DNA of 23,604 nt from the IMG/VR virus record IMGVR_UViG_2529292985_000014, positions 1 to 23,604 of that record; one strand, written 5' to 3'. Positions 1,522 to 23,388 of the stretch are shown here, piece by piece (within the stretch, counting starts at the first letter, position 1; each line of letters begins with the position of its first letter). Under the pieces are notes generated by a model. That model had not been told where the DNA came from and did not search any database. It saw only the letters and a list, made by a program, of their open reading frames with translations. Both the position numbers and the translations under genes were made by a program. This DNA comes from a virus. Its lineage: Duplodnaviria; Heunggongvirae; Uroviricota; Caudoviricetes.

Positions 1522-1956
1522 CTACCCCATGATTCGATATTTCTCTACAGACTCGTCGTAACTTGTGTACACGTATGGCTCTGTATCATCGGCATAAGGT
1601 GCGACTTCCAGAGCATGAACAGGATTGTATACCGCGTCATTTTCCAGGCGATCGCTCGAATACAGATGCCCAGCCAAAACCGTAAGCGCCGGGCGACTCA
1701 TTTTGTAGATCTCTGCCACATCGCTATCTACAACTTGTCCAAATGATATGTCGCCGCGCTCCAGCAATAACGTTTTAAGCGCAGGCCACCACGGCCCATA
1801 AAGGTGATAAAGCTGTGGATCTCGTTTCAGCCTTTCCACCATGCCATTCAGATATGCATCCAGAAATGCCTCTTCACTCCTGCCATTGAGCGCCTGCGGC
1901 AAAATGTCCTCAAGGTAGGATTCCGTTGGTTTTACTGTGTCGATCAATGTTGTCAT
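1522..1956 (-). CDS. Hypothetical 144-aa acidic protein immediately downstream of darB (position I recall for P1 ulx)
   Basis: ATG start. Its AGAGG Shine-Dalgarno lies inside a hairpin CGGCCTC-TTTC-GAGGCCG (about 1963-1980) that sits between the darB stop and this start. Acidic, aromatic-rich sequence with no known motif. Confidence 0.45.
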   Translation of the reverse strand: MTTLIDTVKPTESYLEDILPQALNGRSEEAFLDAYLNGMVERLKRDPQLYHLYGPWWPALKTLLLERGDISFGQVVDSDVAEIYKMSRPALTVLAGHLYSSDRLENDAVYNPVHALEVAPYADDTEPYVYTSYDESVEKYRIMG

Positions 1957-1992: not shown

Positions 1993-4900
1993 TTAAGCCG
2001 CCGCTTCAATGATTTTACGCACTTCATCAATTGAATAGCGCGTCGATACCATCCAGGCCGGACGGTCAAAGTCCACATCGGCAACCGGGTTAACTTCGAA
2101 GTTCCAGAAACGCCCACCGATTTTCTTGATGGCATCTTTTGCGTTGCGAATAGATGAAGATCCGGGCATATCTGCAATGAGATAAACAGCACCAGCGTCT
2201 TCACTTACGCTCCACCAGCGACCGCGGACACGTGCTTTGGCGCGAATAGGCTTATCGTTTACCACGATAATGTAATCATCATTTGCTGCCTCGTCAGCCT
2301 TATTCTCAGCAGCATCAGCCTGTTCTTCCCGTTCAGTCTTAGCCGCCGCAAGACGTTCAGCAATCTCTGACTCCGTAGCGCCACTATTTTTAAGCGACAC
2401 AAAGTCATCCCACGTTGCAGATTTCAGAGCATCAGGCAACTCTTCCACATACCCGCCCGCTTTTAAGGCGTTAGCATGGCGTATAGCCATCCCGACAAGA
2501 CGATTCAAGCTATCTGCATCTGCGAAATCATCACGGGTAATGCTTTTATCCTCAAATGCATGAATTAACGCCCCCGCTTTAATCCAGACTGTTGCAGATG
2601 TTTCAAGCGGATTATCGGCATTAGAAATGCTTAGTTGCGCACTGTAAACTGACTGATCTGCCAACGAGGCAAGTGACGCCCAACCATCTGCATCACTTTG
2701 CATTTTGTACTGATCAAACAGCGCATCACGCCATGCATTTAGCGCCATGCGTGTTTTCTCAATTTTGGTTGTGATTTTGGACGTTCGCAGTTGTTCGAAC
2801 ATCTGCGAAATCTCCGAACCATTGGTGAAGGCTTTCATGCGCCCCTGGAAATCGCGGAAAGAAAGCACGCCTCGCCAGTACGTTTCCAGGCCTTCTCCAT
2901 TTGGCTTGCGGAACAAGCTGCGGACATCTTCCTGAGTCACTTTTTCAAGTGAACGCCCGGAGAGATCGCGCCCTGCCATCCAGCCATCGAACGCCTTGAC
3001 CACATCATCCATAGTGGCCTGAGCGCCCCATGCCTCCATACCTTGCTCATAATCGAAGCCAAACAATGCACGGAGAAAACCTTCTGCCTCTGAAATACGA
3101 AGTGGGTTATCACCTGTCTGGATTTTCGCGACTTCGCGTTTTAATGCTTCGTCGTTTACATCAGGATAAATCCATTGTTCAGGTGCTATCTCGTCACTTC
3201 CAGATGCGCTAATTTTTTGACCAATCATCCCGCCATAGGTAAAGGCCATTTGAATCTGACCATTGGCGTTACGATAAGCCCAATAGTTTACATCCGGTGC
3301 TCCTTGCCAACCGCCACGATCTCTCCCAGTTACCCGCATAACACCGCTACGAATAGCGTCATAGAATTGATCGCGAGAAAGAGAGGTTGAAAGCTGGTGG
3401 CTTTGAACACCACGTGCCGCTATTTCTCGTGATTCAGCCACCCCCTCTTCAAATGTTACCGCTTCAACCACTGAGTCAAACGGTAATGTCATGGTTGAGC
3501 CAGGAGAACGAGAGTGGCGACTTGCTCTATCCAGCCAGGCGACGCGGCAGGTGTATTGCGCTTTTTCGCCCTCAATTTGTGTCACGCGTACAATCGCCGT
3601 TGTCTCGTATTCAGCATCAATGACTGCACGGTAGTAACTACCTTTATGCAACAGGATGTTCTTGCCAGTGCGCATATACTCCTGCGGGTTCTGAATAACA
3701 TCGATACTGATATCCAGCACACCAGACTTAATAGCACGCTCCACATCACCACGAGAGCGTTTCATAACAGTATCCGCGTCCTTCGCCCTGGTGATTGCAA
3801 ATCGCAATTCACGCACTCTTTTTTTAGCTTTGCTTAGTGCTGAAAGCGTATATTTCTGTCCGTTTTTGTTGGTGCCGCTCTTAATCAGTCCATCCAGATC
3901 ACTCTGGTATCGTTGCGCCTGCTCCATCGCGCTTTTCAGTTCTGCCTCCATCATGCCGATATCCTTCCCGGCAGCATTCGCCGCTTTCAGGTAGTTATCG
4001 AGAGCATTATTGGCTTCGCGTTGCGCTTTAAGTCGCAGGCGTTCCTCACGTTCTTTCGACTGACGAGCCATAATTGCGCGTCGTTCTTCCGGATTTGCCG
4101 CCAGCATAATGGCGCGCTCATCAGCGTCATCCGCATCACCATTGGCGATCTCTGACATATCGGAGGTCATCACCATCTTGATCCAGTCTTTCTTACGTTT
4201 AAGCGTATCCAGACGGAAGTCATCGAATGTGCCTTTGCCACAATAATAGTGAACATTAACCTTCTCTTGCGGAGAACCTACGCGCGCACCGCGCCCATTT
4301 CGTTGGTCGATACTGGCAGGAGTCCAGGGTAGTGTCAGGTGGTGAATATCGGTCGTTCCAATATGCAGGTTGATACCTACTTCGGCTTTCTTGTTACAGA
4401 TAATGATTTGCGTGCGCCCTTCGTTATAGTCGGCAGCAATACCTTCCATCCCCTCAAGGCCAGCATCATTTTTAGCAGAGAGATAATCCTCATATTGGGC
4501 CAGTTTACTGTAGTAGGTTTCCCATGCGCCTTCTTTGTATTCACCGTCTTTGTTTGGCGTCGGTTCGGTCGGTTTTTTGACCTTTTTCAGCTTAACACCA
4601 CCAGCCTGGCTAACAGTCGTAGCATTGATAATGCCTATCTCCTGCTCTGGCATTTGCAACGCACTGGCAATGATGCGACGTAGTTTCTGGTGCTGGGCTT
4701 TCTCGTCGATAAAGATAATTTGCTTACCGTTCTTAAGCCCTTCACGAAGGTTCTCGATAAGTGCGGCATACTTAGGCGGGATCGGGTGTGACACCTGTTT
4801 CATGTCGATGCCTGCATCAGCAATTGCCTTGAGTATTTCAGCCTCCAGGTCAATGCTGGCACGCAATTCGACGTGATTTGGATGCTCACTAAATGTTGTA

Positions 4901-7900
4901 GCTACAACCTTGCTGGTACGGGTACTGACCAGGCCTCCGATCGCATCCTCCTCTGCTTCTTCTGCATCGTCTGCCGCTTTCCCACCAGCCACTTTTGGTA
5001 GGTTATTAGCTATAGACTTCACCTGTTCAGTAAGTTCTACAGGGAACTGGAATGTGATAGCGCTGGCGTAAAGATCCGGGTCGATAGCGACCTTATCCAT
5101 GTCGCGAATGATAGAGAAAATGAAATCATCCGGTTTCCCGCGAGTGATATTGCCTTCATCATCGACAGTGACGTCATCACCACGACTTAACTCCTGCGCG
5201 CGTTTACGAAGCTCTTCATAAGCTGCTTGCTGCTCTGGAGTCATTGGGATCTGCAAGGTGTTTTCGACGATATCCGGGATTTTTACCGTTGCACCAACAT
5301 CGGAAGCCGTTTTAAGCGTTGTCCAGCGGTGGAAAATGCCACGCAGACCATCAAGGTTCTGGAAGCCCACCAGCCCCTGTTTCTCTTCCACTTCGCCAGA
5401 AATTTTCTGGACCTGAACAGTGGCTGTTTTACCGAACACTCGCACAAAGTCGTCAGGGGTAATAATCCCCATGTGCATCCACTCGTGCTGAGGGATCACC
5501 GTTGACAGCATGTTGAAGGCGTCAATAGGGCTATTAACCAGCGGAGTTGCTGTCAGCATTACGACGCCGCGCCCATTGTGACGTTTCATCATGTACGCAG
5601 CTTTTACAGCCATGTCACGGGCCATTTTGGATACCGCCGGATTAGGTAAATATGCCAGTTGCCCCGCTTCACGCCCGGCACCAAAGGAGTTGCGGTAGTT
5701 ATGCCCTTCGTCGGCAATTACGCTATCGAAGTTCATATCCTCAAAGTACGGGATATTCTGCTTCTTCGCTGTACCGGTATTCGCGGCCTGGTCCTTAATC
5801 TTGTTCTTCTTCTGCGCATCACGGTGCTTGCCTGACGCCAGGTCAAGACGCCCCATTTCGGCGGCATTAAAGACAGCCTGCTGTGAGTTTTCTCCGATGG
5901 TTTCATCGCGCAACGGGATAGATGCGAACTGCTCTTTTGTCATGATGACCGTTCGCCAGTTCGACGATGGGATCATGTTCATGCGTTGAGCGATAACGGC
6001 ACTGGCGGATTCTTTAACAACATTACGGGTGATCGGATTGCCGTCGTTATCAAGTCGCGGGGTGCCGTCCTGGTCGAGCACTGGGGCAGTCTGAATATTT
6101 CCGTCACCATCGCGCACTTCGTCCAGACCGATAAACATCATATTGGCGAAGGCATCTGCACTGTAGAAGCTCTGTGCCTCGTGATACCAGTTCTGGTATA
6201 CGGCCTTTGGAACAACGATACAGGTACGTTTGGTTCGCCCGGTTTCAAAGTTATAGGCTTCCAGTGCCAGCGCGGTCGTCGTTTTACCCAAACCAGTTCC
6301 GAATCCCATAATCCCGCGCCCATCTTCCGACAGACGACGAACTTCTTCGTTCTGGTAAGAAAGCGGTATACGTTTCCCGCTGATGCCTTCAAGCCCCAGG
6401 GGTGCGTCTGAATGGGTAAATGGAATATAACCGTTAAAGGCGTCGTTATAATCGCGGGCGATCTGGTCTGCCTGCGGGTGAGTTCTTAACCAGTCGTTAA
6501 AACTCGTCTCAAGCTGGGCGATTTTGTCCAGGTACTCGTTAGCGTTCTGTCCGCGCGGTTTAACACCGTTCAGGTAGTTCTCAAGCTGATTCAGGAAGCC
6601 ATCTTTGTTATTCGCTTTCTTGAACTCGTTCCCGTTTTTGCCGTTTACGGTTCGTAGCTGGTAGCCAGTAAATACCCCGTCCTTACCTTCGTAATCGTCC
6701 GGGGATACCAGAATGCCGTTCTCAACCTTAAGGTCGGGTTCTGTATACTTAAACTCGTCATAGCCCTGCTCTGCCAGGAACTCTTTTATCAGGCGGCGAT
6801 CCAACCACCGTGCGTTAAGGTTTACCGTGACTTTGTTCAGCGGTGTAAACGTGCGTTTCTCTTCGATTTTTGAAAGCTGGCGCTCAAAGTTGGCCTTCCG
6901 CTCTCCTGTGGACGCGTCTCGCCAGCCCACCAGCAGTGCCACTTTTGATTTAATATCACCGCTAGTGGCACGGCCCATCGGTAGCAGGCAACCATATCCA
7001 TCAATAGCGATATCGTCGAATTTCGCCAGGTATTCCTGTGCTTGATCGTCGTCTTCTGGCAGTTCGCCTTTAAACGCCTCGCGGAAGTCATCAAGATTGA
7101 TAGGATTAAGGGCAACATCGCTGAAAAGGTGTGTCACAACCTGTTCCGGACGAGTGAAATCAATACCAGCAGCCCCTTTGCTAACATCAAGCCGTCCGGA
7201 CAGCAGATCGGATGCTTCACCGTCCTGATTGACGTTCCCGGTGAATGTCAGCCAGTTCTTCGCGCCCGCTTCGGTAATGTCGTTTAGCTTAATGGCGTGT
7301 GGTGGGCCATATTTAGCAACTTCGGCAGCCGTCAGACGTGCGGCATCAGCCAGTTCATCATCGACGTTTTCACCAAGGTTACGCTTATCCAGCGCTTTAT
7401 TGATAAGTTGCCCGATCAGCGCACCGCGCATAATGCGCTCACGGTCTTTTTCGCGTTGTTTCCCAGCAAAGCGAATCATTGCCGCTACTTCATCACTGAT
7501 AACCGATGGATAGTCGGAAGCGATCGCGGATATCTGCCCCCATGACAGAGCCAGAATGCCGTTTGTTGATTGGAACGTTGTTTGCAGATCACCGAATGTC
7601 GAAACACCATATCGGCTTACATCAAGTACGGAGGATTTGGTTGTCGCATCTTTAACCCATTGCAGGCCATCAAACTCGTGCCAGATGCCACCTACAAGGC
7701 GCTTGTCTCCTACTTTGGCGCCCTGCCATGCCTGAGTAGTTACGCCAAGCAAATCCCAATTAATGCGGCTTTCAAAGCGGCGCGATAGAGCGGTTTTCAT
7801 CGACTCATTGGATACACGACCGTCCTTTTTCACCACCAGAGTATTGCGGAAGCTGGTACGTTCCATGTCGCCGTAAACAAATCGCTTCCCTTCGGTTGTA

Positions 7901-8910
7901 AACCATTTTCCTTTGAGGAAGGTATCCCAAAGGACGTTTGCCGATTTGAGTGTTGAATCATCCGTGTCGGGGATCATCTCCAGGAAGGTTTCCGGGTGTT
8001 TACGCAATACCCATACGTCCACCACGGTATCTGTACCGGATTCGCTGAACGTACCGGAAGGCATACGATGTGCGCCCAAAAATTCCGCTTTACGGCTGAC
8101 TTTATCGCGCAATTTTTTATATTTCGTACCATCGGTCATGCCATTCGGCACCACCAATACGATAAGCCCACCAGGCTTAACCTTGTCGATCGTGCGCAGC
8201 ACAAAGTAATTGCCAACGTTCTTCTCGTTTGCATATGCCGGATCAAGCCCGGCGACACCGGAACGCCCTTCACCAAACGGTACGTTACCAACAGCGTGAT
8301 CATACATTGCGTCTTTCGCCGCCAGCGCCTCAAACGCCCCGATATTCACATCGTCTTCCGGGTGCAAAAGCTGGTTTATTCGACCGGAAATCGGAGACAG
8401 TTCGGCGCTGGTCATTATCATGCCCTGTCGTTTTGTCTCCTGGAAAATACCTGTGCCCGCTGATGGTTCCAGTACGTGCCCGCCATCAATACCGTAGTCA
8501 GCAAACAGATCCCATATACCTTCAGCCATAAACTGTGGCGTGTAGTATTCGTATTGGCTGCCCTCACCATCTGTCAGGCCGCCTTCACCGGTATACCCGG
8601 CAAGAATCTGACGCTGTTCGTCAGTTAATTTCGCCCCATCGAAGCCGGGCGGAAGGGAATTAAGAAGCTCTACTGCGGCGTTGTTTGCTGCCCGCCGTGT
8701 TTTTTGAATGCTGACACCATCGACTTTCTTAACGCCAAAGGTCGCAACAGCACGTAATTTATGCAACCGACTAACAATTTCAATCAGTTCGCCTAAGCTG
8801 GAGGCTTCACTGATTGAATGAAGTAGTTTATCCAAAGGATTACCCCCTCTAAACCGTAAAAAATCCGCTATGCGGTACGGTTGAGAGGGTATGGAGAATG
8901 TTATTTTCAC
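1993..8910 (-). CDS. darB: DarB-like giant protein: N6-adenine DNA methyltransferase domain plus SF2 helicase core plus long C-terminal region
   Basis: 2305-aa uninterrupted ORF. MTase motif I VLEPSAGTGIF and motif IV GNVPFG (NPPF-type), roughly nt 7900-8560. Helicase Walker A GFGTGLGKTTT (about nt 6270), motif II VIADEGH (about nt 5710), motif III LTATP, motif VI QRNGRGARVG (about nt 4290). The track start is GTG 8910 with no SD. TTG at 8835-8833 is preceded by AGAGGGGG at 7 nt and may be the real start. Confidence 0.8.
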   Translation of the reverse strand: MKITFSIPSQPYRIADFLRFRGGNPLDKLLHSISEASSLGELIEIVSRLHKLRAVATFGVKKVDGVSIQKTRRAANNAAVELLNSLPPGFDGAKLTDEQRQILAGYTGEGGLTDGEGSQYEYYTPQFMAEGIWDLFADYGIDGGHVLEPSAGTGIFQETKRQGMIMTSAELSPISGRINQLLHPEDDVNIGAFEALAAKDAMYDHAVGNVPFGEGRSGVAGLDPAYANEKNVGNYFVLRTIDKVKPGGLIVLVVPNGMTDGTKYKKLRDKVSRKAEFLGAHRMPSGTFSESGTDTVVDVWVLRKHPETFLEMIPDTDDSTLKSANVLWDTFLKGKWFTTEGKRFVYGDMERTSFRNTLVVKKDGRVSNESMKTALSRRFESRINWDLLGVTTQAWQGAKVGDKRLVGGIWHEFDGLQWVKDATTKSSVLDVSRYGVSTFGDLQTTFQSTNGILALSWGQISAIASDYPSVISDEVAAMIRFAGKQREKDRERIMRGALIGQLINKALDKRNLGENVDDELADAARLTAAEVAKYGPPHAIKLNDITEAGAKNWLTFTGNVNQDGEASDLLSGRLDVSKGAAGIDFTRPEQVVTHLFSDVALNPINLDDFREAFKGELPEDDDQAQEYLAKFDDIAIDGYGCLLPMGRATSGDIKSKVALLVGWRDASTGERKANFERQLSKIEEKRTFTPLNKVTVNLNARWLDRRLIKEFLAEQGYDEFKYTEPDLKVENGILVSPDDYEGKDGVFTGYQLRTVNGKNGNEFKKANNKDGFLNQLENYLNGVKPRGQNANEYLDKIAQLETSFNDWLRTHPQADQIARDYNDAFNGYIPFTHSDAPLGLEGISGKRIPLSYQNEEVRRLSEDGRGIMGFGTGLGKTTTALALEAYNFETGRTKRTCIVVPKAVYQNWYHEAQSFYSADAFANMMFIGLDEVRDGDGNIQTAPVLDQDGTPRLDNDGNPITRNVVKESASAVIAQRMNMIPSSNWRTVIMTKEQFASIPLRDETIGENSQQAVFNAAEMGRLDLASGKHRDAQKKNKIKDQAANTGTAKKQNIPYFEDMNFDSVIADEGHNYRNSFGAGREAGQLAYLPNPAVSKMARDMAVKAAYMMKRHNGRGVVMLTATPLVNSPIDAFNMLSTVIPQHEWMHMGIITPDDFVRVFGKTATVQVQKISGEVEEKQGLVGFQNLDGLRGIFHRWTTLKTASDVGATVKIPDIVENTLQIPMTPEQQAAYEELRKRAQELSRGDDVTVDDEGNITRGKPDDFIFSIIRDMDKVAIDPDLYASAITFQFPVELTEQVKSIANNLPKVAGGKAADDAEEAEEDAIGGLVSTRTSKVVATTFSEHPNHVELRASIDLEAEILKAIADAGIDMKQVSHPIPPKYAALIENLREGLKNGKQIIFIDEKAQHQKLRRIIASALQMPEQEIGIINATTVSQAGGVKLKKVKKPTEPTPNKDGEYKEGAWETYYSKLAQYEDYLSAKNDAGLEGMEGIAADYNEGRTQIIICNKKAEVGINLHIGTTDIHHLTLPWTPASIDQRNGRGARVGSPQEKVNVHYYCGKGTFDDFRLDTLKRKKDWIKMVMTSDMSEIANGDADDADERAIMLAANPEERRAIMARQSKEREERLRLKAQREANNALDNYLKAANAAGKDIGMMEAELKSAMEQAQRYQSDLDGLIKSGTNKNGQKYTLSALSKAKKRVRELRFAITRAKDADTVMKRSRGDVERAIKSGVLDISIDVIQNPQEYMRTGKNILLHKGSYYRAVIDAEYETTAIVRVTQIEGEKAQYTCRVAWLDRASRHSRSPGSTMTLPFDSVVEAVTFEEGVAESREIAARGVQSHQLSTSLSRDQFYDAIRSGVMRVTGRDRGGWQGAPDVNYWAYRNANGQIQMAFTYGGMIGQKISASGSDEIAPEQWIYPDVNDEALKREVAKIQTGDNPLRISEAEGFLRALFGFDYEQGMEAWGAQATMDDVVKAFDGWMAGRDLSGRSLEKVTQEDVRSLFRKPNGEGLETYWRGVLSFRDFQGRMKAFTNGSEISQMFEQLRTSKITTKIEKTRMALNAWRDALFDQYKMQSDADGWASLASLADQSVYSAQLSISNADNPLETSATVWIKAGALIHAFEDKSITRDDFADADSLNRLVGMAIRHANALKAGGYVEELPDALKSATWDDFVSLKNSGATESEIAERLAAAKTEREEQADAAENKADEAANDDYIIVVNDKPIRAKARVRGRWWSVSEDAGAVYLIADMPGSSSIRNAKDAIKKIGGRFWNFEVNPVADVDFDRPAWMVSTRYSIDEVRKIIEAAA

Positions 8911-8985
8911 GGGGACGATACTACCGTCAAAATCACATACCCCCCATAGTTTGCCTGCTTATTAACCAATGACCGGAAAAAAAAT

Positions 8986-9573: not shown

Positions 9574-9798
9574 TCAGTGTGCCTCCGCAATGCTGGGATT
9601 GGTAATATTGCGATACCAGGGATTAGTGTTTGGTTGTGGGGAAGTAGAGAAACGACCAGTAAGAACACCATACTGATCAGGGATCAGAGAACGGGCTTCT
9701 TTTTCGGTTGCGGCAATTGCGAAGTGATCGCAGTGTTTTTGCAGGGAGTGGAAACGCCAGATGAATTCTGGACGTGAGCAAGGATTGGCATTAACCAT
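9574..9798 (-). CDS. Hypothetical 74-aa protein
   Basis: ATG start with GAGG about 9 nt upstream. Minus-strand terminator about 80 nt downstream. No recognisable domain. Could be spurious. Confidence 0.3.
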   Translation of the reverse strand: MVNANPCSRPEFIWRFHSLQKHCDHFAIAATEKEARSLIPDQYGVLTGRFSTSPQPNTNPWYRNITNPSIAEAH

Positions 9799-10211
9799 AG
9801 TTACGGCCTCACTAACAGGTTTAACAACCTGCTACCCGCTGTCAAACAGGTGGCAGGACGTGACAGGGTTGACAGACTGGCGTTAGTGAAACCAGCAGGC
9901 CGAAGCCTCCCCATCACGCCCCACCATAATTCGGGCGTAACGCGGTTTACGGACACAAAAATACCGCAATATCGGAAATCTGCGGTTGTCCGCACTAACA
10001 TTCAGGCTGTCAAACCTGGTCGCAGAATTTGCTACGACGGCATGAATATAAGCCTGAAAACATGGAAGATCAACTAAAAATTTCAGCAATGGATGACTTC
10101 AGTCGATGATGCAGATCATACATTCCGATTTAGAAACAGAAAATTAATTTTCTAATACAAATCATCGAGCGAGCATTTGCCGATCATTGGGATGTTTTGT
10201 AGGCACACAGG

Positions 10212-14069: not shown

Positions 14070-14133
14070 GAATCACCGCAAATTGTTTCCAGTTTTGCGG
14101 CAGCATAATCAGTATGTGATTTCAGCGGTTGGT

Positions 14134-15531
14134 TTAGTTTTCTGTACGGCAATTATTTGGAACTGTAGAATTTTCAAACATAGCAAAGTTCAGACCTTTC
14201 CCTTCGCCAAATTCACCCTCAATTTCATCAGATACAGCAGACAAAATACTACGCAGATCAACATCGCCACCGCCGAACATATCGCCCAATGCCTGTTGTT
14301 TATGAGTCAGCTCGTCGTTGATTTTTTGCGCCATTTTTTTGAATGCTGCCCCCATACGCTTCGCACTGCGATTATTTGCTACGATGAATAGCGCCAATGC
14401 CTCAGCTTCCGGTGTACTGTCGCCGAATAACCCCCTTTGGGCGATCACTTCTTCAACGGCCTGACCGTTGTCTTTGGCTTCACGTACAAGATTAATTGCT
14501 TCCTGGAGTGCTGCTATCGCCTGTGTATCCAGGCCATTAACCTGCTCTATACCGTCCACTAAGCCTGTTACTGCGTCATGGTGAGCGTCGCCAGACAGCG
14601 ACTGCATTTGCGCAAAATCGCTGGCTGCCGTATTTAATGCGATCAGGATATTACGCATTTCCGGATCTGGCTCTTCCGACACCAGCCGAACAAGCCTTTC
14701 ATCCTTGTACGCTTTGGCAAAAATTGCATTCTGGATGCGATCGATAAGCTGTTTCGTGGGACGCCCATCGGCAGTAAGCAAGCCTGCCGTCGCTGTATCG
14801 CCAATTTCGCGCAAAAACGCACGAATAAACGCATCATTGGACCGCGCCAGCAGGTTTCCATCATCTGAAGGATTAAATAGCGCCATGACGCTCTCAGTGA
14901 GAAATTGCGCATCCGCATACGCTTTTTCACTTGCTGCCATCTCTTGCAGATCACTAATGTTTGAATCGCGGGCAAATTGAGCGCGGTCTACATCTGTGAG
15001 TCTTTCTCGCACCAGTACGGGCATAGACATTTGCGAAATTTCGTCAGGATTCAGACCAAACTCTTTCGCATGGTCGATCAGGTACTGGCGATACTCATCC
15101 GCCTGTCCTTGCTCATAGGCACGCCAGATACCCATACTCCTTCCGTTGCCGGATTCAACAACGTTGTCCGGACCAACTATCGGCGCTCCATGGCTGCTCA
15201 TACCGGAATCCGTTAATTGTGCCGGGCGTAAATCGGAGGCAATACGGTTAACCTGGAGTTTGCTGGATAGCCGGGTACGATCTCGTGGTTGGAGTTCTTC
15301 CGGGAAGGCCGGGTTAATCGTACCGTCAAGGTTGTTCGAAATGATTAGACTGCTGGCATCAACGACCTTAAAAGCCGTCTTTACCTCTGCGCCTTTGCTG
15401 GTGACTACGTAGCTACTTCGCCCCATGCGTGTTTCTTTCCTCTCTAATGAAGAAACCAGAGCAATGACGCTGTTAATATCTGCGGCCTCGGAAAGCGCAG
15501 AAGTAACTGATTTGTTCAAAATACACTCCAA
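14134..15531 (-). CDS. Hypothetical alpha-helical protein, possibly a virion internal protein (downstream of the DdrA-like gene)
   Basis: 465-aa ORF. Track start is TTG 15531. An alternative TTG at 15519-15517 has GGAG 6 nt upstream. No motif recognised. Confidence 0.35.
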   Translation of the reverse strand: MECILNKSVTSALSEAADINSVIALVSSLERKETRMGRSSYVVTSKGAEVKTAFKVVDASSLIISNNLDGTINPAFPEELQPRDRTRLSSKLQVNRIASDLRPAQLTDSGMSSHGAPIVGPDNVVESGNGRSMGIWRAYEQGQADEYRQYLIDHAKEFGLNPDEISQMSMPVLVRERLTDVDRAQFARDSNISDLQEMAASEKAYADAQFLTESVMALFNPSDDGNLLARSNDAFIRAFLREIGDTATAGLLTADGRPTKQLIDRIQNAIFAKAYKDERLVRLVSEEPDPEMRNILIALNTAASDFAQMQSLSGDAHHDAVTGLVDGIEQVNGLDTQAIAALQEAINLVREAKDNGQAVEEVIAQRGLFGDSTPEAEALALFIVANNRSAKRMGAAFKKMAQKINDELTHKQQALGDMFGGGDVDLRSILSAVSDEIEGEFGEGKGLNFAMFENSTVPNNCRTEN

Positions 15532-15588
15532 CTATAGAGAAAGCTGTGAGTGTAAAAAGAGTGTGATTTATGTGAGAACAGAGAAGTG

Positions 15589-15611
15589 AAAGGGGGATTC
15601 CACCCCCTTTT
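15589..15611. terminator. GC hairpin AAAGGGGG-ATTCCA-CCCCCTTT between the DdrA-like and 465-aa genes
   Basis: Read directly. Followed by TTTTG on the plus strand and TTTC on the minus strand. A TATAGT -10-like hexamer lies just downstream on the minus strand. Could be an attenuator or partial terminator. Confidence 0.3.
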
Positions 15612-15613
15612 GA

Positions 15614-15982
15614 TTACCCGGCATAACCGTTGGCTTTCACCCAGCTTATGGTCTGTTCTTTAGCCTGCTCCAACGTAAGGAACTCGCCAACATAGTTTGA
15701 GATCCCACGCAGCGCATCAATAAATTCCATTTGTGTGGACTTTGTGAACACACCGCCCAGGAAGTCAGTCACTATCTTAGGGACTTCATCTACAACAGGA
15801 TCAGTCTGTTGTTGCGGTTCCGCTGCCGGTTGCGCGGCAGTCCCCAGGCCCAATTTCAGCATCACATCAACAATCTGCTTACCAATGGTGACGCGTTGCA
15901 ATACTGGCGCAGTTTTCTGCGCCTGCATTAGATCTGATAGCTCTTTACCTAATTTCAGGCGGTCTAAAACAGAGATGGTCAT
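15614..15982 (-). CDS. DdrA-like small protein encoded directly downstream of the DarA-like gene
   Basis: 122-aa ORF. Its ATG overlaps the upstream stop (TAATG), indicating coupling. Assignment by position only. Confidence 0.4.
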   Translation of the reverse strand: MTISVLDRLKLGKELSDLMQAQKTAPVLQRVTIGKQIVDVMLKLGLGTAAQPAAEPQQQTDPVVDEVPKIVTDFLGGVFTKSTQMEFIDALRGISNYVGEFLTLEQAKEQTISWVKANGYAG

Positions 15983-17907
15983 TAAGCACCTCCCTGCTGA
16001 ATTTCAGCCAGAATGTTGATCAGGTAGTCAACTGCTGCACCCACAGTGGCTTCGTTCTCGTCGTATCGACCTGCACTGATTAGAGCATTTGCTGCTTCCT
16101 GTACATGATCAAGTTCAGTACTGATGACCGTCAGATCGCGGGATGTAAACTGCTCCGGCACGGATTTCAGGTACTCCAGCGCTTTATCTGCCTCCTGATC
16201 AGCTTCACTTGCTGATTCACCCGCTTCTTCTGGTTCCGGCTCCTGTTCTGGTGCTGGTTGTGGTTGTGATTCTGGCTCAACCACATGCTCTGTTTTTACT
16301 TCGCTTGAATAATTTTGAAGGGCGTTATACACGTCCATAATGAAAAGGTTCTCCCCATCACCAAGTGGATACGCCACGTTTGGAAACGCTTTGCGGAAAA
16401 GAATTTTCACTTGCGCCTTGAATGTTTTCAGGTCACTGCCAAACAGGTCCACATAGCCATCAATATGTTTAGACATGCTGGACACAACCAATTGGCCTGC
16501 AAAATCTTTCAGCTCATCTTCATCAGGAAGATAGAGCAACTCGTACTGGCTGACTTCTTTATCTGTCAGTTTACGGTCATACGTAATGATACCGTGACGA
16601 GCATATCCGTAATACTGATCAGCCTGGTCAGGACGATCAAGCACGGCTTTATTTCCATCCGGCACAGCACCAACACCAGCCGGGCGAGATTGAAGTGCAT
16701 AGTGGTATTTACCTACATCTTGGCTCTCTGGTTGTGATACTGGGTTCGTCTCGGGGGCTGTCTGTGGTGGTTCGGAGTCTTCCTGCTGGCCTGGTAACAC
16801 ATCAACTTTATATTTATCTGCGTTATGCTCTCGGTAGGCTTTAAGTAATTTGGTTGCAGCATCTGCCAAACTGCCTCCTTTGACAGCACTGGCATCAATA
16901 CTGAATTTACCTTCAGGTGCTACTATCGTAACGAAATTGTCACTGCCGGACGTGACATAATTAACTTCAGCGCCATTATCCAGCACTGTTTTTCCGTCAA
17001 TGGCAAGATTATGTTTTACATGTCGCAGCTGGTCACTAAACGCTCGCTCCTTCGTTTTTTCACCTTTAGCAGACAACAATTTATCGCGTTTTTCTTGTAA
17101 TTCCTCGTTGATGGCTTTCTGGGCATCAAGTTTTTTTTGCATCTCCGTAAGAGCAGCACGCTTTTCAGTCAGCCCACGTTGCGCAACGTCCACCTGATCA
17201 ATTGTTATTGACCGTTCTTCTGCCAGTTTATCTGCTTCATTGAGATAACTCTCAATATCTGCCTTCATTTTGTCCTGGCGCTCTTTTGCTTTCTTAAACT
17301 TTTCGCTGTTACGCTCAATCAAATTAGATAGCGCCTGGCATACCTGGCTTAAAGAAACATCTCTCCCACCAATCGGGGCGACAACGTGAGTTACGTTACG
17401 CTTATTAAGTAAAAACTGAAATGCAACAAGCTCGTCGTTACTCTTTATTTTTGCCCCGTCAGCTGTTGGAGAGTGGAAAATTATGCTTGTACTCTGCCCG
17501 TCAGTAAGCGGTATCTGCGCGGTCAAAACAGGGATATTAGCTACCCGACGTACACGACCGATAATCGCACCACCAATACAATTACGTCCATTTTCATCGG
17601 TCCCGGCTTCATCAGTCCCTGCCATAATATTCGTACCATTCAGGCCACGATTCAGCGCACGGACGAAAGCTCGCATTGTTTGAGCTAACCGAATTCTGGT
17701 TGTAGTTATGGACTCAAACATAGCTTCGTCAGACACAACCAGAATTTCATTGCCCATATAGGCAAGCTCAATATCTTCTAAGGTCGCCGCCTCAAAAATC
17801 AGGTCATCTTCGCTTAATTCTTCTGAAGACCAGCGACCTGGCATATAGCCGGGGATCGTATCAGCAAAAGTAGACTGAATATTAATTCGTAAAGGATTGT
17901 TAATCAT
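15982..17907 (-). CDS. darA: DarA-like internal head / anti-restriction protein
   Basis: Track ORF is 654 aa from 17946. ATG at 17907 has GGAGG 6 nt upstream and overlaps the upstream stop (ATGATTAA), giving 641 aa. Long coiled coil (KFKKAKERQDKMKADIESYLNEADKLAEE...) and acidic Pro/Glu-rich low-complexity segment (EPESQPQPAPEQEPEPEE). Sits after holin, LydB-like and Hdf-like genes, as I recall for the P1 darA operon. Confidence 0.5.
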   Translation of the reverse strand: MINNPLRINIQSTFADTIPGYMPGRWSSEELSEDDLIFEAATLEDIELAYMGNEILVVSDEAMFESITTTRIRLAQTMRAFVRALNRGLNGTNIMAGTDEAGTDENGRNCIGGAIIGRVRRVANIPVLTAQIPLTDGQSTSIIFHSPTADGAKIKSNDELVAFQFLLNKRNVTHVVAPIGGRDVSLSQVCQALSNLIERNSEKFKKAKERQDKMKADIESYLNEADKLAEERSITIDQVDVAQRGLTEKRAALTEMQKKLDAQKAINEELQEKRDKLLSAKGEKTKERAFSDQLRHVKHNLAIDGKTVLDNGAEVNYVTSGSDNFVTIVAPEGKFSIDASAVKGGSLADAATKLLKAYREHNADKYKVDVLPGQQEDSEPPQTAPETNPVSQPESQDVGKYHYALQSRPAGVGAVPDGNKAVLDRPDQADQYYGYARHGIITYDRKLTDKEVSQYELLYLPDEDELKDFAGQLVVSSMSKHIDGYVDLFGSDLKTFKAQVKILFRKAFPNVAYPLGDGENLFIMDVYNALQNYSSEVKTEHVVEPESQPQPAPEQEPEPEEAGESASEADQEADKALEYLKSVPEQFTSRDLTVISTELDHVQEAANALISAGRYDENEATVGAAVDYLINILAEIQQGGA

Positions 17908-18520
17908 GCTCATCCTCCAGGCGCGCGATTTCTTCTTTAAGAGCACGTGTCTTAGCTACTTCCTGAGACAAGGCAGCTTTAACGTTACCCGTATCTTGCA
18001 TTACTTTGTCTGACTTGCTCTGGAGTTTAGACAGTTTGTCGTTAGCATTAGCGATATCTTCACGGAGTGCATCACGTGATTCTTTCGCTTCAGCTAATTT
18101 CTGAGCGTTGGATTTAACTCCCTGCCGCTTCTTATTTTCGTCATCAATATTTTTTGCTGCACGAGCAAGTTTTCGAGCTAATGACTTCTGGAAAGAAGTT
18201 GCTCCGCGATTAAATAAAGCCGCAAGAGATTGCCCCAAAGCCGACATTGTTTTTACTGGCTTGAACGGTACTGTTTTACCATTCAGTTTGATCCCAGATA
18301 TATCACCGGTATCGTTAACCTGAACTTCCATTGTCTGTTCATCAAGACCAATAAGGGTAAACGTGCGCGTCATGATCCCATCTTTCTTCCTGCCATTACT
18401 TGCAGGGATCACCCTCGCTATCTTGTAACCACCTTTGCTGATTTCTTTGACGAGTTTTGCCAGCCCCTTTTCGTTTAACTCATCATAATTAAGAAGAACA
18501 TAATTATTCTTATTTGACAT
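17900..18520 (-). CDS. hdf: Hdf-like protein (homolog of a DarA fragment)
   Basis: Likely start ATG 18520 with AAGGAGG 5 nt upstream (the track GTG 18535 is less likely). Segment SALGQSLAALFNRGATSFQKS resembles DarA-like LSQVCQALSNLIERNSEKF, and both are followed by a coiled coil. Confidence 0.45.
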   Translation of the reverse strand: MSNKNNYVLLNYDELNEKGLAKLVKEISKGGYKIARVIPASNGRKKDGIMTRTFTLIGLDEQTMEVQVNDTGDISGIKLNGKTVPFKPVKTMSALGQSLAALFNRGATSFQKSLARKLARAAKNIDDENKKRQGVKSNAQKLAEAKESRDALREDIANANDKLSKLQSKSDKVMQDTGNVKAALSQEVAKTRALKEEIARLEDEHD

Positions 18521-18956
18521 CCCAGCCTCCTTCACGCTTTTCGATCGTAAACTGGCGCTCTATGCAGTCATTGATAGGGAAAATGCGATAAAGCGGATTC
18601 AGTCGGCAGTTACCGTTAGTCAATGTGACTTTCAGATCCCACTTCGTTGGCTCAAGATATTTCGTATCGATGAGCAAATACTCTTCTCTCTCACCGCGTT
18701 TTGAGGCGTCAACTGGTCGTGTTTTCCCTGAAATAACCACAGATGGATTTTTCAGGTCTTGCAACCAATATTCGATTTGAGCATTGCTGACCCAGCTTCG
18801 CTTAACACGTAGCGAAACAGGAAATGCTATAGCAGATTCTTTCACTACAGCGTCACCAATACTCAAAATCTCAACACTCTTGCGACGAAAAATGAAACGG
18901 TCAATGATGGCAACAAATGCCATGATAAAAATGAAATAATTCCCAAAGTTACCCAT
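18510..18956 (-). CDS. LydB-like membrane-anchored protein (candidate antiholin or lysis regulator)
   Basis: 148-aa ORF. ATG overlaps the holin stop (TAATG). N-terminal hydrophobic segment NYFIFIMAFVAIIDRFIF followed by a soluble domain. Confidence 0.45.
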   Translation of the reverse strand: MGNFGNYFIFIMAFVAIIDRFIFRRKSVEILSIGDAVVKESAIAFPVSLRVKRSWVSNAQIEYWLQDLKNPSVVISGKTRPVDASKRGEREEYLLIDTKYLEPTKWDLKVTLTNGNCRLNPLYRIFPINDCIERQFTIEKREGGWDVK

Positions 18957-19282
18957 TATTTCTCTCCACCTTTTCCCCCATTCGCTATTACGCTTAAGAG
19001 ATTCAAGACGTTACTAGCTCTGGACTTCAAGCCCTGTAAAATTTCTCTTCCGTTGTTACTGGCAATCAGAACAACGCAGAAAATGATACCTTCAGGCCAT
19101 TCCTGGCTAACCGCCACCCCATACCCCGCAAGCCCGGCTGTTACCGCAGTAAACAATTCACTCGCAAGATTGAGCAGGGACGCAGAAATGCGCCCGTCTC
19201 TAACTCCGAGAAGGAATACGCCGGTTCCACTTAGTAGGGATGTTATGACTACTACAGCCAGATTTTCATAATCTGCAAACAT
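18956..19282 (-). CDS. lydA: Holin (LydA-like), three predicted transmembrane segments
   Basis: 108-aa ORF with strong SD GGAGGGG before the ATG. Hydrophobic stretches LAVVVITSLLSGTGVFLLGV, LFTAVTAGLAGYGVAV and IIFCVVLIAS. Basic C-terminus. First gene of the operon. Confidence 0.55.
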   Translation of the reverse strand: MFADYENLAVVVITSLLSGTGVFLLGVRDGRISASLLNLASELFTAVTAGLAGYGVAVSQEWPEGIIFCVVLIASNNGREILQGLKSRASNVLNLLSVIANGGKGGEK

Positions 19283-19294
19283 ACCCCTCCAGAA

Positions 19295-19325
19295 ATAACA
19301 TCTAATGCGCCACTAACTTAGTCAG
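19295..19325 (-). promoter_or_regulatory. Candidate late-type promoter for the lydA-darA operon: palindrome ACTAAGTTAGT upstream of a -10-like TTAGAT
   Basis: On the minus strand the 11-bp palindrome (plus 19311-19321) is centred about 11-12 bp upstream of TTAGAT (plus 19299-19304). There is no -35 hexamer. This matches my recollection that P1 late promoters carry an inverted repeat centred near -22 instead of a -35. Confidence 0.3.
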
Positions 19326-19387
19326 TTTGTTATTTCCTTACAGGACATCTTCTAAAATCTCCCTCCTTAACATACAAGGGGGAACAT

Positions 19388-19948
19388 ATGCTTATTGGAT
19401 ACATTCGCGTATCAACTAATGACCAAAACACAGCTTTACAACGAAACGCCCTTGAAAGCGCAGGATGTGAGCTAATTTTTGAGGATAAGGCGAGCGGCAA
19501 AAAGGCTGAACGCCCTGGGTTAAAAAAGGTTCTCCGTATGCTTTCCAGAGGTGACACCCTGGTCGTATGGAAGTTAGATCGTCTTGGGCGCAGTATGCGT
19601 CACTTGGTTGTGCTGGTGGAAGAGCTTCGTGACATAGGCATTAACTTCCGGAGTCTCACTGACTCCATCGACACCAGTACACCAATGGGGCGCTTTTTCT
19701 TTCACGTAATGGGGGCGCTGGCAGAAATGGAACGTGAGCTTATCGTTGAACGTACACGCGCTGGACTTGATGCGGCTCGCGCAGAAGGTCGTATAGGTGG
19801 GCGTCGGCCTAAATACCAAGAAGAAACATGGCAGCAAATGCGGCGATTGCTGGAGAAGGGAATCCCCCGTAAGCAGGTTGCAATCATCTATGATGTGGCT
19901 GTTTCCACGCTTTATAAGAAGTTTCCGGCGTCATCATTTCAATCCTAA
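19388..19948 (+). CDS. cin: Cin/Gin/Hin-family serine DNA invertase
   Basis: 186-aa ORF. N-terminal MLIGYIRVSTNDQN with the catalytic Ser. Conserved VVWKLDRLGRS and FHVMGALAEMERELI. C-terminal HTH GIPRKQVAIIYDVAVSTLYKK. SD AAGGGGGAA before the ATG. Confidence 0.85.
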   Translation: MLIGYIRVSTNDQNTALQRNALESAGCELIFEDKASGKKAERPGLKKVLRMLSRGDTLVVWKLDRLGRSMRHLVVLVEELRDIGINFRSLTDSIDTSTPMGRFFFHVMGALAEMERELIVERTRAGLDAARAEGRIGGRRPKYQEETWQQMRRLLEKGIPRKQVAIIYDVAVSTLYKKFPASSFQS

Positions 19949-19995: not shown

Positions 19996-22857
19996 TTGAG
20001 CACGGCTAACACATGGAGTTCACGCCAGACTTTCAACGGCGGGATCACCGGGGCGCTGACAGGGAACGCCGACACCGCGACGAAACTTGCGACGGCAAGA
20101 AACATCAACGGTGTTAAATTTGATGGTTCTGTGGACATTTCGATACCAACAATTACGTCCAGAGGGCGTGTTACTGCGCTCACCGGTACAACACAAGGTG
20201 CTGCTACTGGATTGCAAATGTATGAGGCGTACAACAACGGCTATCCTTCTGTTTACGGGAATGTGCTTCATCTTAAGGGCGCAACGGCAGTTGGTGAAGG
20301 TGAGTTGTTCATAGGTTGGAGCGGTACAAGTGGCGCTCATGCACCTGTACATGTACGTTCGCGACGAGATACTGATACAGCCAGTTGGTCAGAGTGGGCG
20401 CAGGTCTACACATCGAAGGATTCCATCCCTGGTGTAAATACCACGGGCAACCAGAACACAACCGGAAACGCGGCGTCTGCAACGAAATTACAAACGGCAA
20501 GAACTATTGGTGGTGTTTCATTTAATGGCACCGCAAACATCGACCTGCCGGGCGTGAATAAAACAGGCAATCAGAGCACTACCGGCAATGCAGCTACAGC
20601 CACAAAACTGCAAACAGCACGCACCATTAATGGGGTTTCATTTGACGGAACGGCTAATATTTCTCTGTCACCGGCAAATATTGGTTGCCCGGCATCTCCT
20701 ACTGGTTGGCTTGAAACAGGTGATAATGGAGCATCAATAACAACAGAGCAATTAGTGACTCTGCTACGAGATAATGGTGCTTTTAATGCAAAGGTATGGA
20801 TAGCGCGTTGTGCCTGGGCGTATGCAAATAGTGCATCCATACCAGACAGCGAAACAGGATGCGGCATTATTCCACTGGCGGGTGCTGTGATAGAAGTATT
20901 CAGCAATAATACCAACAATTACACCATTCGAATAACAACGGCAACGACGACAAGTGTATCTGGCGCACTCACTAATGCTGAATTTATCTATGTGTCTAAT
21001 GGCACAAGTTATTCACCAGGATGGCGCAGAGCGTATAACACTAAAAACAAACCTACTGCGGCTGATGTCGGAGCTTTACCACTATCTGGAGGAGCGTTAA
21101 CTGGCGGATTAACTGCTGCTGGCGAGATTATTTCCAAATCGGCGAATGGTCTGCGCATTGCCTATGGCAACTATGGATTCTTTATCCGAAACGATGGTTC
21201 AAACACATATTTCATGTTGACCGATTCGGGTAACAGCCTGGGAACCTATAATAGGTTAAGGCCGCTTATCATTAACAATGCCAATGGTACTGTTACGATC
21301 GGTAATGGACTCAATGTTACTGGCGGCATCAATGGTAGTTTGAACGGTAATGCTTCAACAGCTACGAAGTTGCAAACTGCTAGAAAAATAAGCGGCGTGT
21401 CTTTTGATGGTTCTGCTGATATAACACTAACAGCTGAAAATGTATCTGCTTTTGCTCGACGCGCTACTGGAACTTATGACGATACTAGTGGTGCGGTCCC
21501 GTGGAATGCCGAATCAGGTGCGTATAATGTTACACGCTCCGGGGCTTCTTATATCGTTGCAAATTTTTATACAGGCGTAGGTAGTTGTCGGACTCTCCAA
21601 ATCCGAGCGCATTATAAAAATGGTGGATTGTATTACCGTTCATCACGTGATGGCTATGGGTTCGAAGAGGACTGGACTCAGATATATACTAAAAAAGACA
21701 GCATCCCTGGTGTGAATACAACTGGTAATCAGAACACTACTGGCAATGCTGCAACTGCAACAAAACTGCAAACAGCACGCACAATAGGCGGAGTGTCATT
21801 CGATGGTAGTGCCAATATCGACCTGCCAGGTGTGAATAAAACAGGTAATCAGAACACTACCGGTAATGCAGCGACAGCGACCAAGTTGCAGACAGCATGT
21901 ACTATCAACGGCGTCTCGTTTGATGGTTCTAAAGATATTGAACTTAACCCACGGTCTATAGGCACGATCAACTCCACAACAATGTCTTTTAGTGGTGGTG
22001 CTGGATGGTTCAAACTGGCAACTGTAACCATGCCACAGGCCAGTTCCGTGGTTTACATAAGCCTGATTGGTGGTGCAGGGTTTAACGTTGGCTCCCCGCA
22101 GCAAGCAGGCATCTCTGAGCTGGTTCTGCGTGCAGGAAATGGAAATCCAAAAGGTATTACTGGTGCATTATGGCGACGGACCTCGGTTGGATTTACTAAT
22201 TTTGCATGGGTGAATACATCCGGTGATACCTATGATGTTTATGTTGAAATAGGTAATTACGCCACAGGTGTTAATATTCAGTGGGATTATACCAGTAACG
22301 CCAGCGTAACGATTCATACATCACCAACTTATACAGCGAATAAACCAACAGGCCTGACAGATGGAACTGTATATGTAATTTACAGTTCGCACATTAAACC
22401 GACTGCTGCTGAGGTTGGGGCGTTGTCATTATCTGGCGGTCAATTGAATGGTGCACTGGGCATCGGAACATCCAGTGCTCTTGGTGGTAACTCGATTGTT
22501 TTGGGTGATAATGACACGGGATTTAAACAAAATGGCGACGGGTATCTGGATGTTTATGCTAATAACGTCCATGTTATGCGCTTTGTCTCCGGCAGTATTC
22601 AAAGTAATAAAACCATAAATATTACAGGTCGTGTTAATCCCTCAGATTACGGTAACTTTGATTCCCGTTATGTGAAAGATGTTCGCCTGGGTACGCGTGT
22701 TGTTCAATTGATGGCGCGTGGTGGTCGTTATGAAAAAGCCGGACACGCAATTACCGGATTAAGAATCATTGGTGAAGTAGATGGCGATGATGAAGCCATC
22801 TTCAGGCCAATACAAAAATACATCAATGGCACATGGTATAACGTCGCACAGGTGTAA
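19996..22857 (+). CDS. Tail-fibre variable cassette (Sv-type C-terminal part of tail fibre protein S), currently not fused to a constant part
   Basis: 953-aa ORF that the track starts at TTG with no SD. The same frame is open upstream to 19918, across the cix-like site. At least six copies of the phage fibre repeat GNA-x-TATKLQTAR-x-I-x-GV-x-FDG. Confidence 0.75.
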   Translation: MSTANTWSSRQTFNGGITGALTGNADTATKLATARNINGVKFDGSVDISIPTITSRGRVTALTGTTQGAATGLQMYEAYNNGYPSVYGNVLHLKGATAVGEGELFIGWSGTSGAHAPVHVRSRRDTDTASWSEWAQVYTSKDSIPGVNTTGNQNTTGNAASATKLQTARTIGGVSFNGTANIDLPGVNKTGNQSTTGNAATATKLQTARTINGVSFDGTANISLSPANIGCPASPTGWLETGDNGASITTEQLVTLLRDNGAFNAKVWIARCAWAYANSASIPDSETGCGIIPLAGAVIEVFSNNTNNYTIRITTATTTSVSGALTNAEFIYVSNGTSYSPGWRRAYNTKNKPTAADVGALPLSGGALTGGLTAAGEIISKSANGLRIAYGNYGFFIRNDGSNTYFMLTDSGNSLGTYNRLRPLIINNANGTVTIGNGLNVTGGINGSLNGNASTATKLQTARKISGVSFDGSADITLTAENVSAFARRATGTYDDTSGAVPWNAESGAYNVTRSGASYIVANFYTGVGSCRTLQIRAHYKNGGLYYRSSRDGYGFEEDWTQIYTKKDSIPGVNTTGNQNTTGNAATATKLQTARTIGGVSFDGSANIDLPGVNKTGNQNTTGNAATATKLQTACTINGVSFDGSKDIELNPRSIGTINSTTMSFSGGAGWFKLATVTMPQASSVVYISLIGGAGFNVGSPQQAGISELVLRAGNGNPKGITGALWRRTSVGFTNFAWVNTSGDTYDVYVEIGNYATGVNIQWDYTSNASVTIHTSPTYTANKPTGLTDGTVYVIYSSHIKPTAAEVGALSLSGGQLNGALGIGTSSALGGNSIVLGDNDTGFKQNGDGYLDVYANNVHVMRFVSGSIQSNKTINITGRVNPSDYGNFDSRYVKDVRLGTRVVQLMARGGRYEKAGHAITGLRIIGEVDGDDEAIFRPIQKYINGTWYNVAQV
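20403..20690 (+). repeat. Internal tail-fibre module, copy 1
   Basis: Encodes YTSKDSIPGVNTTGNQNTTGNAASATKLQTARTIGGVSFNGTANIDLPGVNKTGNQSTTGNAATATKLQTARTINGVSFDGTANISL. Near-identical at protein level to copy 2, diverged at synonymous positions. Confidence 0.7.
21684..21965 (+). repeat. Internal tail-fibre module, copy 2
   Basis: Encodes YTKKDSIPGVNTTGNQNTTGNAATATKLQTARTIGGVSFDGSANIDLPGVNKTGNQNTTGNAATATKLQTACTINGVSFDGSKDIEL. Lies 1281 bp downstream of copy 1, in frame. Confidence 0.7.
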
Positions 22858-23388
22858 ATGATGCAGCATTTAAAAAATATTAAGTCTGGAAATCCTAAAA
22901 CAAAAGAACAATATCAGCTAACAAAGAATTTTGATGTTATCTGGTTATGGTCCGAAGACGGAAAAAACTGGTATGAGGAAGTGAAAAACTTTCAGCCAGA
23001 CACAATAAAGATTGTTTACGATGCAAATAATATTATTGTCGCCATCACCAAAGATGCCTCCACGCTTAACCCTGAAGGTTATAGCGTCGTTGAGGTTCCA
23101 GATATTACAGCCAACCGCCGCGCTGATGATTCCGGTAAGTGGATGTTTAGGGACGGAGCTGTGGTTAAACGGATTTATACGGCAGACGAGCAACAACAAC
23201 AGGCCGAATCACAAAAGGCCGCATTGCTTTCCGAAGCTGAATCAGTCATCCAGCCGCTGGAACGCGCTGTCAGGCTGAATATGGCAACAGACGAGGAGCG
23301 CACACGACTGGAAGCATGGGAACGCTACAGCGTTCTTGTAAGCCGCGTGGATACGGCAAAGCCAGAATGGCCACAAAAACCTGAGTAA
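22858..23388 (+). CDS. Tail fibre assembly protein (U / Tfa-type chaperone)
   Basis: 176-aa ORF. ATG abuts the tail-fibre stop (TAAATG). C-terminus ...[27 protein letters not shown] is typical of Tfa-family proteins. Confidence 0.7.

Follow-up and report, generated by a model that had tools for sequence, protein, structure and literature searches.

Bacteriophage P1's darA operon is the closest characterised counterpart of the locus described here. In P1 the order next to cin is lydC, the promoter LPdar, lydA, lydB, hdf, darA, ddrA, ddrB and hxr. P1 Hdf and DarA set head size and are required for the loading of other Dar proteins, DdrA acts against EcoA, and DdrB and Ulx aid the loading of DarB, which counters EcoK and EcoB (PMC9024508). 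The inner surface of the P1 capsid carries 55 DarA-Hdf pairs, located at penton-hexon junctions, and these are gone after DNA ejection (PMC12810830). Dar protection operates only in cis, on packaged DNA (PMC12707154), and knockdown of lydB lowers plating, consistent with premature lysis (PMC10695390). A second described relative is Escherichia phage D6 (NC_050154 / MF356679), whose records label orf26-orf30 as similar to P1 ddrA, darA, hdf, lydB, and lydA. The present analysis concerns a block of five genes, lydA-lydB-hdf-darA-ddrA, in a caudoviricete sequence from IMG/VR (record IMGVR_UViG_2529292985_000014, positions 1 to 23,604). The whole of this 23,604-nucleotide (nt) stretch is referred to below as the window. 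Very probably, the P1 darA operon has its D6-lineage orthologue in this region, on a P1-like phage-plasmid from E. coli.

Gene content and orthology with P1

Genes were called from a list of open reading frames (ORFs) combined with a direct read of the minus strand, on which all five consecutive genes lie. The predicted holin gene lydA (18956..19282) encodes 108 amino acids (aa) and is followed by lydB (18510..18956), encoding a putative holin antagonist of 148 aa. Next come hdf (17900..18520; 206 aa counted from the ATG), darA (15982..17907; a predicted capsid-internal protein of 641 aa counted from the ATG), and ddrA (15614..15982; 122 aa). An earlier note on this DNA, made from its letters and ORFs alone, had given sizes of 206 and 641 aa for the Hdf-like and DarA-like proteins, and these are exact. 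It placed the operon at 15982-19282, a range that covers lydA to darA but includes a single base of ddrA, which it also named, and it did not state the strand.

The same note had proposed a match to the P1 darA operon, and this holds: the five products are orthologues of P1 proteins in P1 order, with supporting matches in Pfam, PHROGs, and PDB. Identity to P1 is 41-45% for LydA (tblastn 8e-20), 34-35% for LydB, 37-40% for Hdf, 39-41% for DarA, and 33-34% for DdrA (tblastn 1.3e-19), so the alignments to P1 Hdf, DarA, and DdrA that it proposed as a check all return orthologues. Cronobacter phage JK004 has the same gene order as P1. An unusual degree of divergence from P1 was considered for the operon and rejected, as 33-45% identity resembles that of prt (49%), pro (43%), and darB (43%).

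DarA contains both Pfam domains, DarA_N at residues 62-201 (5.3e-40, 136.5 bits) and DarA_C at 399-462 (1.3e-18, 67.7 bits), each above the cut-off of 27. It is assigned to the DarA-type family of PHROGs, and its residues 35-640 match the P1 DarA capsid chain (PDB 9ukm_I, E 1.4e-122). Hdf consists of a DarA_N domain at residues 11-106 (1.8e-17) followed by a long C-terminal helix. It falls in the Hdf-like PHROG 1620 (6.4e-76) and matches the P1 Hdf capsid chain (PDB 9ukm_H, E 2.6e-25). DdrA belongs to the DdrA-like PHROG 1855 (4.8e-50); the Pfam scan found no family for it. As expected of a P1-type Dar operon, DarA has both domains, Hdf lies directly upstream and DdrA directly downstream, and darB and ulx are present in the genome.

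The two lysis genes head this series of putative head-internal proteins, as had been proposed from the sequence. LydB exceeds the Pfam cut-off clearly (PF16084, 87.3 bits against 28) and belongs to PHROG 1898, lysis determining protein (1.1e-68). LydA is placed in PHROG 1527, holin (4.2e-39); it is small, has a strongly hydrophobic segment at residues 7-28, precedes lydB, and shows direct homology to P1 LydA. Two points weigh against reading these assignments too firmly. LydA scores only 16.9 bits with Pfam Phage_holin_3_3 (PF16083), under the cut-off of 28.4, and all functions are carried over from P1 across 33-45% identity.

Identity with D6 and distribution among phage-plasmids

At the nucleotide level the lydA-ddrA block is 97.3% identical to phage D6, and, two deletions aside, the window runs collinear with D6 10293-32616 over its entire length. 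The window DarA is 95% identical to D6 orf27, and the D6 records label the lydA counterpart 'holin, similar to P1 lydA'. The same block is found in 120 plasmid records from E. coli, Salmonella, and Shigella, 119 of which are typed as non-mobilizable. These plasmids are D6-like phage-plasmids. In some of them (H101-H103, e.g. NZ_CP032875.1, CP057755.1) the match to window positions 14100-19400 comes in two parts, and the annotation there includes an IS200/IS605 TnpB or TnpA-TnpB element.

The lydA-ddrA operon is already known: the D6 record annotates it, work on P1 has characterised it, and for its protein families there are Pfam and PHROGs models and a PDB structure. Because it is already annotated in public records, the D6-type darA operon is ordinary.

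Overlapping junctions and possible translational coupling

All four junctions of the block overlap, by 1, 11, 8, and 1 nt from lydA onwards. The lydB ATG has one base in common with the lydA stop (TAATG), the hdf ATG lies 11 nt within lydB (ATGTCAAATAA), the darA start overlaps the hdf stop by 8 nt (ATGATTAA), and the ddrA start overlaps the darA stop by 1 nt, again as TAATG. Direct reading therefore agrees with the earlier note, which had successive genes overlapping at start and stop. Its list of junctions (TAATG, ATGATTAA, TAATG) is correct for the three it gives, but leaves out the lydB/hdf junction. The strong Shine-Dalgarno sequence it saw at each start is also present, with GGAG or GGAGG 3-7 nt 5' of the start codon in all five genes. 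The sequences are GGAGG 3 nt upstream of lydA, GGAG 7 nt upstream of lydB, AAGGAGG 5 nt upstream of hdf, and GGAGG 6 nt upstream of both darA and ddrA.

The tight junctions are retained in every lineage, while their form varies. The hdf/darA junction is an 8-nt overlap in the window and D6, a 4-nt overlap (ATGA) in the related plasmids L007 and L009, and a 1-nt gap in P1 and JK004. This retention is in keeping with selection that favours coupled or matched expression, and from the overlaps alone, translational coupling of lydA-ddrA is plausible and can reasonably be proposed.

Several points weigh against coupling and favour an alternative, in which the overlaps reflect genome compaction only and each gene is translated independently from its own Shine-Dalgarno sequence. 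Overlap is the default packing, found at 37 of the 94 same-strand junctions (39%) in the annotated D6 genome, and a GGAG or GGAGG of its own stands before every start. No conserved structure masking a ribosome-binding site was found across the block, and the start regions of hdf, darA, and ddrA have moderate predicted accessibility (0.38-0.52). The lydB start is the only one predicted to be masked. The hairpin responsible was considered as evidence of coupling and rejected, because it is weak (z -1.9, -10.6 kcal/mol) and is lacking in L007, which is 84% identical, and also in P1 and JK004. A real dependence of downstream on upstream translation is unsupported. On the other side, tight junctions persist in P1-like, JK004-like, and D6-like lineages despite the changing overlap, the run of four overlaps exceeds expectation (p ~0.024, taking junctions as independent; second-longest in the D6 genome), and the 1:1 pairing of Hdf with DarA in P1 would reward matched output. 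The compaction alternative is a serious contender, although we lean slightly away from it. The four-overlap run itself is real and mildly unusual, yet it is ordinary phage gene packing.

A candidate late promoter

The late, Lpa-dependent promoters of P1 consist of a 9-bp inverted repeat (AAGTNACTT in LPdar) positioned 4 nt 5' of a -10 hexamer, with no -35 element. A control search for the corresponding pattern AAGTNACTT-N4-TANNNT found it upstream of lydA, R, prt, and lyz in P1. The window does not contain a P1-type late promoter before lydA; it has AAGTTAGTG with a poor -10, which is lost in L007 and L008 and appears vestigial. A P1-type reading of the promoter was rejected, as the LPdar box AAGTTACTT and a local palindrome ACTAAGTTAGT both occur at chance counts in the window, and the palindrome is lost in L007 and L008. 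A generic sigma-70 scan of the window gave no matches above those in shuffled sequence and none upstream of lydA.

Comparison of the upstream regions of D6 late genes yielded a different box, with the strict motif AAAT[AC]ACA-N7-TANNNT (hereafter AAATMACA-N7-TANNNT). In the window this has 4 matches against 0.03 expected from shuffled sequence. All four are minus-strand copies that precede lydA, ddrB, prt, and darB by 30-52 nt. The copy before lydA (19315..19335, AAATAACA-AACTGAC-TAAGTT) ends 33 nt upstream of the ATG, and the copy before ddrB (15549..15569, AAATCACA-CTCTTTT-TACACT) lies 30 nt upstream of that gene. The remaining two are at 14102-14122 (prt) and 8886-8906 (darB), while a relaxed copy on the plus strand (8930-8950) faces a CHAP-domain gene. 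D6 has 6 strict matches against 0.15 expected, adding pmgB and gene 23; all are on the coding strand upstream of late genes. Looser copies precede R, genes 7 and 26, and upfC in D6. The lydA and ddrB boxes are kept amid diverging flanks in L007 and L008, which are only 80-84% identical, and the ddrB box is also kept in L009. D6 encodes an Lpa-like activator. In P1, one strict copy of the box occurs 39 nt upstream of lydC.

These observations make the AAATMACA box a candidate D6-type late promoter. Against this, P1 late promoters are defined by a 9-bp inverted repeat, which the box is not, and the promoter role of the box is therefore one that we infer.

The ddrA-ddrB boundary

A terminator scan found a terminator-like hairpin 4 nt after the ddrA stop (15589..15610, minus strand; AAAGGGGG-TGGAAT-CCCCCTTT). 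Its stem is kept in relatives, and in L007, L008, and L009 the fifth pair is swapped from G-C to C-G, a compensatory change. A terminator role is weakened by the fold that includes the hairpin, which has a minimum free energy of -15.6 kcal/mol and is not more stable than shuffled sequence (z -1.4), and by a poor T tract. Given these two features, read-through into ddrB is possible.

The ddrB gene (14134..15519, minus strand) has a TTG start and encodes 461 aa, with a match to Pfam ddrB-ParB (4.3e-42). It matches residues 2-442 of the 995-aa P1 DdrB at 64-65% identity, well above the 33-45% of its neighbours. This similarity covers the N-terminal half only, and no counterpart of the C-terminal half of P1 DdrB was found in the window or D6. 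In D6, a tblastn match to P1 DdrB extends ~80 nt beyond the annotated ddrB stop. A full-length DdrB (~995 aa) in one unit with ddrA is thus absent from the window; the N-terminal ParB-like half is present by itself, and the hairpin and candidate promoter intervene.

The conserved box before ddrB and the hairpin after ddrA make lydA-ddrA look like a discrete late transcription unit, and ddrB appears to have its own promoter. Alternatively, the operon may run on through ddrB as in P1, with the hairpin serving as an RNA-stabilising or processing element and the box before ddrB being no promoter. The spacing in P1 and JK004, where ddrB starts just 12 nt past ddrA, agrees with this, as do the weak T tract and unremarkable z-score of the hairpin. 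It is harder to reconcile with the 94-nt spacer of the window, which carries the same strict box as is found before lydA, prt, darB, pmgB, and gene 23. The conservation of the ddrB-side box in divergent relatives whose flanks vary, and the compensatory change that maintains the hairpin stem, also argue for the discrete unit. Continuation of the operon through ddrB is held to be unlikely.

A broader proposal is that D6-type elements have rewired the P1 darA operon, using the AAATMACA late box instead of the 9-bp repeat and splitting the operon into a lydA-ddrA unit closed by the hairpin and a half-length, self-promoted ddrB. This is put forward only tentatively, and we consider it doubtful as it stands. 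The D6-type late-promoter box, together with the split and shortened ddrB unit, is the only possible novelty of the locus.

Relationship of Hdf and DarA

Judged by sequence, Hdf and DarA are related by partial duplication, a relationship that was previously established. The earlier note had proposed an ancient partial duplication from a shared segment and coiled coil, and this stands on the presence of DarA_N in both proteins and on profile comparison. The test it suggested, pairwise alignment of the 206-aa and 641-aa proteins, gives a less clear answer. Plain BLASTP with composition adjustment finds no similarity between the window proteins (E=8). Smith-Waterman alignment with 500 shuffles is marginal for the window pair (p ~0.005) and stronger for the P1 pair (5e-5). 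For the N-terminal domains alone, the window pair is not significant (p 0.08) while the P1 pair is (p 2e-5). Comparison by hhalign of two alignments of four sequences each does recover the relationship, matching Hdf 41-205 to DarA 117-281 with a probability of 95.8% and E 7.9e-9, across the DarA_N core and the helical region. As the relationship is invisible to plain BLASTP, the pairwise test is misleadingly negative, and Pfam and hhalign are needed to see it.

The match is collinear: a globular domain comes first, and then a helical stretch that is charged, poor in Pro and Gly, and has a heptad-like spacing of hydrophobic residues. The helical charged segments themselves are collinear, at ~111-187 in Hdf and ~185-301 in DarA. 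This agrees with the pairing seen in P1 by cryo-electron microscopy, where the helical domain of Hdf (135-203) lies alongside that of DarA (PMC12810830). Identity between orthologues is 37-41%, compared with ~20% between the Hdf and DarA paralogues; the duplication is therefore older than the split between P1 and D6.

A purely compositional likeness, arising from charged helical coiled-coil bias rather than common descent, would fit the empty BLASTP result and the p of 0.08 for the window N-terminal domains, but is highly improbable since DarA_N is a globular, non-coiled-coil domain found independently in Hdf (1.8e-17) and DarA (5.3e-40), the P1 N-terminal domains match by themselves, and the hhalign match is collinear over both domains.

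In one relative, L008 (NZ_CP069647.1, pMUB-MIN14-1), hdf and darA form a single 863-aa ORF at 2604-5195 on the minus strand, and lydB (5283-5606, minus strand) is shortened through a 1-nt deletion. A natural Hdf-DarA fusion was considered and rejected, as the six closest relatives have two genes, the length difference is 1 nt, and lydB is also frameshifted. A private frameshift or an error of assembly probably accounts for the fused ORF.

Proposed function

The sequence itself shows which genes are present, their order and overlaps, the Hdf/DarA paralogy, and the conserved motifs on either side. The protein functions, late timing, coupling, and termination of the D6-type operon we infer from P1. 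A single late transcript would probably start ~33 nt 5' of lydA, carry the five tightly packed genes, and mostly end at the hairpin just past ddrA. LydA would act as the holin that makes the inner membrane permeable as infection ends, with LydB expected to hold it back until that point. By analogy with P1, Hdf and DarA, paralogues that each carry DarA_N and a long helix, would pair one-to-one on the inner capsid at penton-hexon junctions. There, these pairs may touch the packaged DNA, determine the size of the head, and bring in other Dar proteins. The ddrA product is putatively a small capsid-internal protein, and its P1 version acts against EcoA, a type I restriction system. The Dar proteins would then exit the capsid with the DNA and shield it in cis from type I restriction. 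During expression, the stop/start overlaps with their strong Shine-Dalgarno sequences could let ribosomes pass from gene to gene, and this passage may help to keep Hdf and DarA levels matched.

Other Dar components and neighbouring genes

The window holds all six Dar components, namely Hdf, DarA, DdrA, a short DdrB, Ulx, and DarB. The darB-like gene (1993..8829, minus strand) encodes 2278 aa with the Pfam domains N6_Mtase, SNF2-rel_dom, ResIII, and Helicase_C, its start being set by analogy with D6 orf15. The product is 43% identical to P1 DarB over ~2000 aa. Downstream of darB lies a ulx-like gene (1522..1956, minus strand; 144 aa) with 48% identity to P1 Ulx (tblastn 1.1e-39), and its D6 counterpart, orf14, is annotated 'Ulx-like anti-restriction'.

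Divergent from darB is a gene for a CHAP-domain protein (D6 orf16; 8986-9471, plus strand). No homologue of the P1 endolysin Lyz was found in D6 or the window, so the endolysin acting alongside LydA and LydB may be the CHAP-domain protein. Further along, Rfam identifies a C4 antisense RNA and its a1/b1 target sites (9846-9931 and 9999-10051, both minus strand) downstream of repL and upstream of an icd homologue. The latter is at 9574-9798 on the minus strand, and ~830 bp that follow icd in D6, comprising orf17 and the anti-repressor gene ant, are missing.

On the other side of the block, the Cin invertase (19388-19948, plus strand) shares 98% identity with P1 Cin, against 33-49% for flanking genes, pointing to recent exchange of the inversion module. 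Downstream of cin, a 953-aa ORF for the variable part of a tail fibre (19996-22857, plus strand) contains internal repeats of the form GNQ(N/S)TTGNAA(S/T)ATKLQTA(R/C)TI(G/N)GVSF(D/N)G. The S' protein of D6 (506 aa) is much shorter and differs from it, and parts of the window ORF have matches in P7, RCS47, and Yersinia phages. Next comes a tail-fibre assembly gene (22858-23388, plus strand).

Significance

Beyond correct annotation, the locus is of little importance. D6-type phage-plasmids occur commonly in E. coli, Salmonella, and Shigella of clinical and animal origin, as the 120 plasmid records illustrate, and they carry a complete P1-like kit of capsid-borne anti-restriction proteins. This kit bears on how D6-type elements cross restriction barriers. 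For those engineering or studying these elements, the locus adds two small points open to test, the candidate late-promoter box and the split ddrB unit.

Comparison with known systems

Phage D6 is the nearest match. The window shares with D6 orf26-orf30 the genes, the overlaps of 1, 11, 8, and 1 nt, and the 94-nt ddrA-ddrB spacer. The differences are a few amino-acid changes and small indels, giving 641 against 645 aa for DarA, 122 against 124 aa for DdrA, and 461 against 454 aa for DdrB. The window also lacks D6 orf17 and ant, as well as orf23 and orf24 (the latter a DUF4145 protein), which occupy ~1.1 kb between ddrB and the portal gene in D6; the corresponding site in the window is 14123-14173.

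The P1 darA operon shares with the window its gene order and its orientation beside cin, the tight or overlapping junctions, an Hdf that is a paralogue of a DarA fragment, and darB and ulx located elsewhere in the genome. Orthologues from lydA through ddrB are 33-65% identical, and the first ~35 residues of the window DarA are unrelated to P1 DarA. No counterparts of lydC or hxr were found in the window or D6. The two operons differ in the forms of their gene junctions, in the upstream box (AAATMACA-N7-TANNNT in the window, AAGTNACTT-N4-TANNNT in P1), and in the ddrA-ddrB spacer, which contains the hairpin and candidate promoter in the window and is only 12 nt long in P1 and JK004.

For the P1 DarA-Hdf capsid complex (PDB 9ukm, 9vz0; PMC12810830), the alignment is nearly full-length for both chains and includes the helical domains that pair. 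The D6-type proteins are likened to this complex by homology of sequence.

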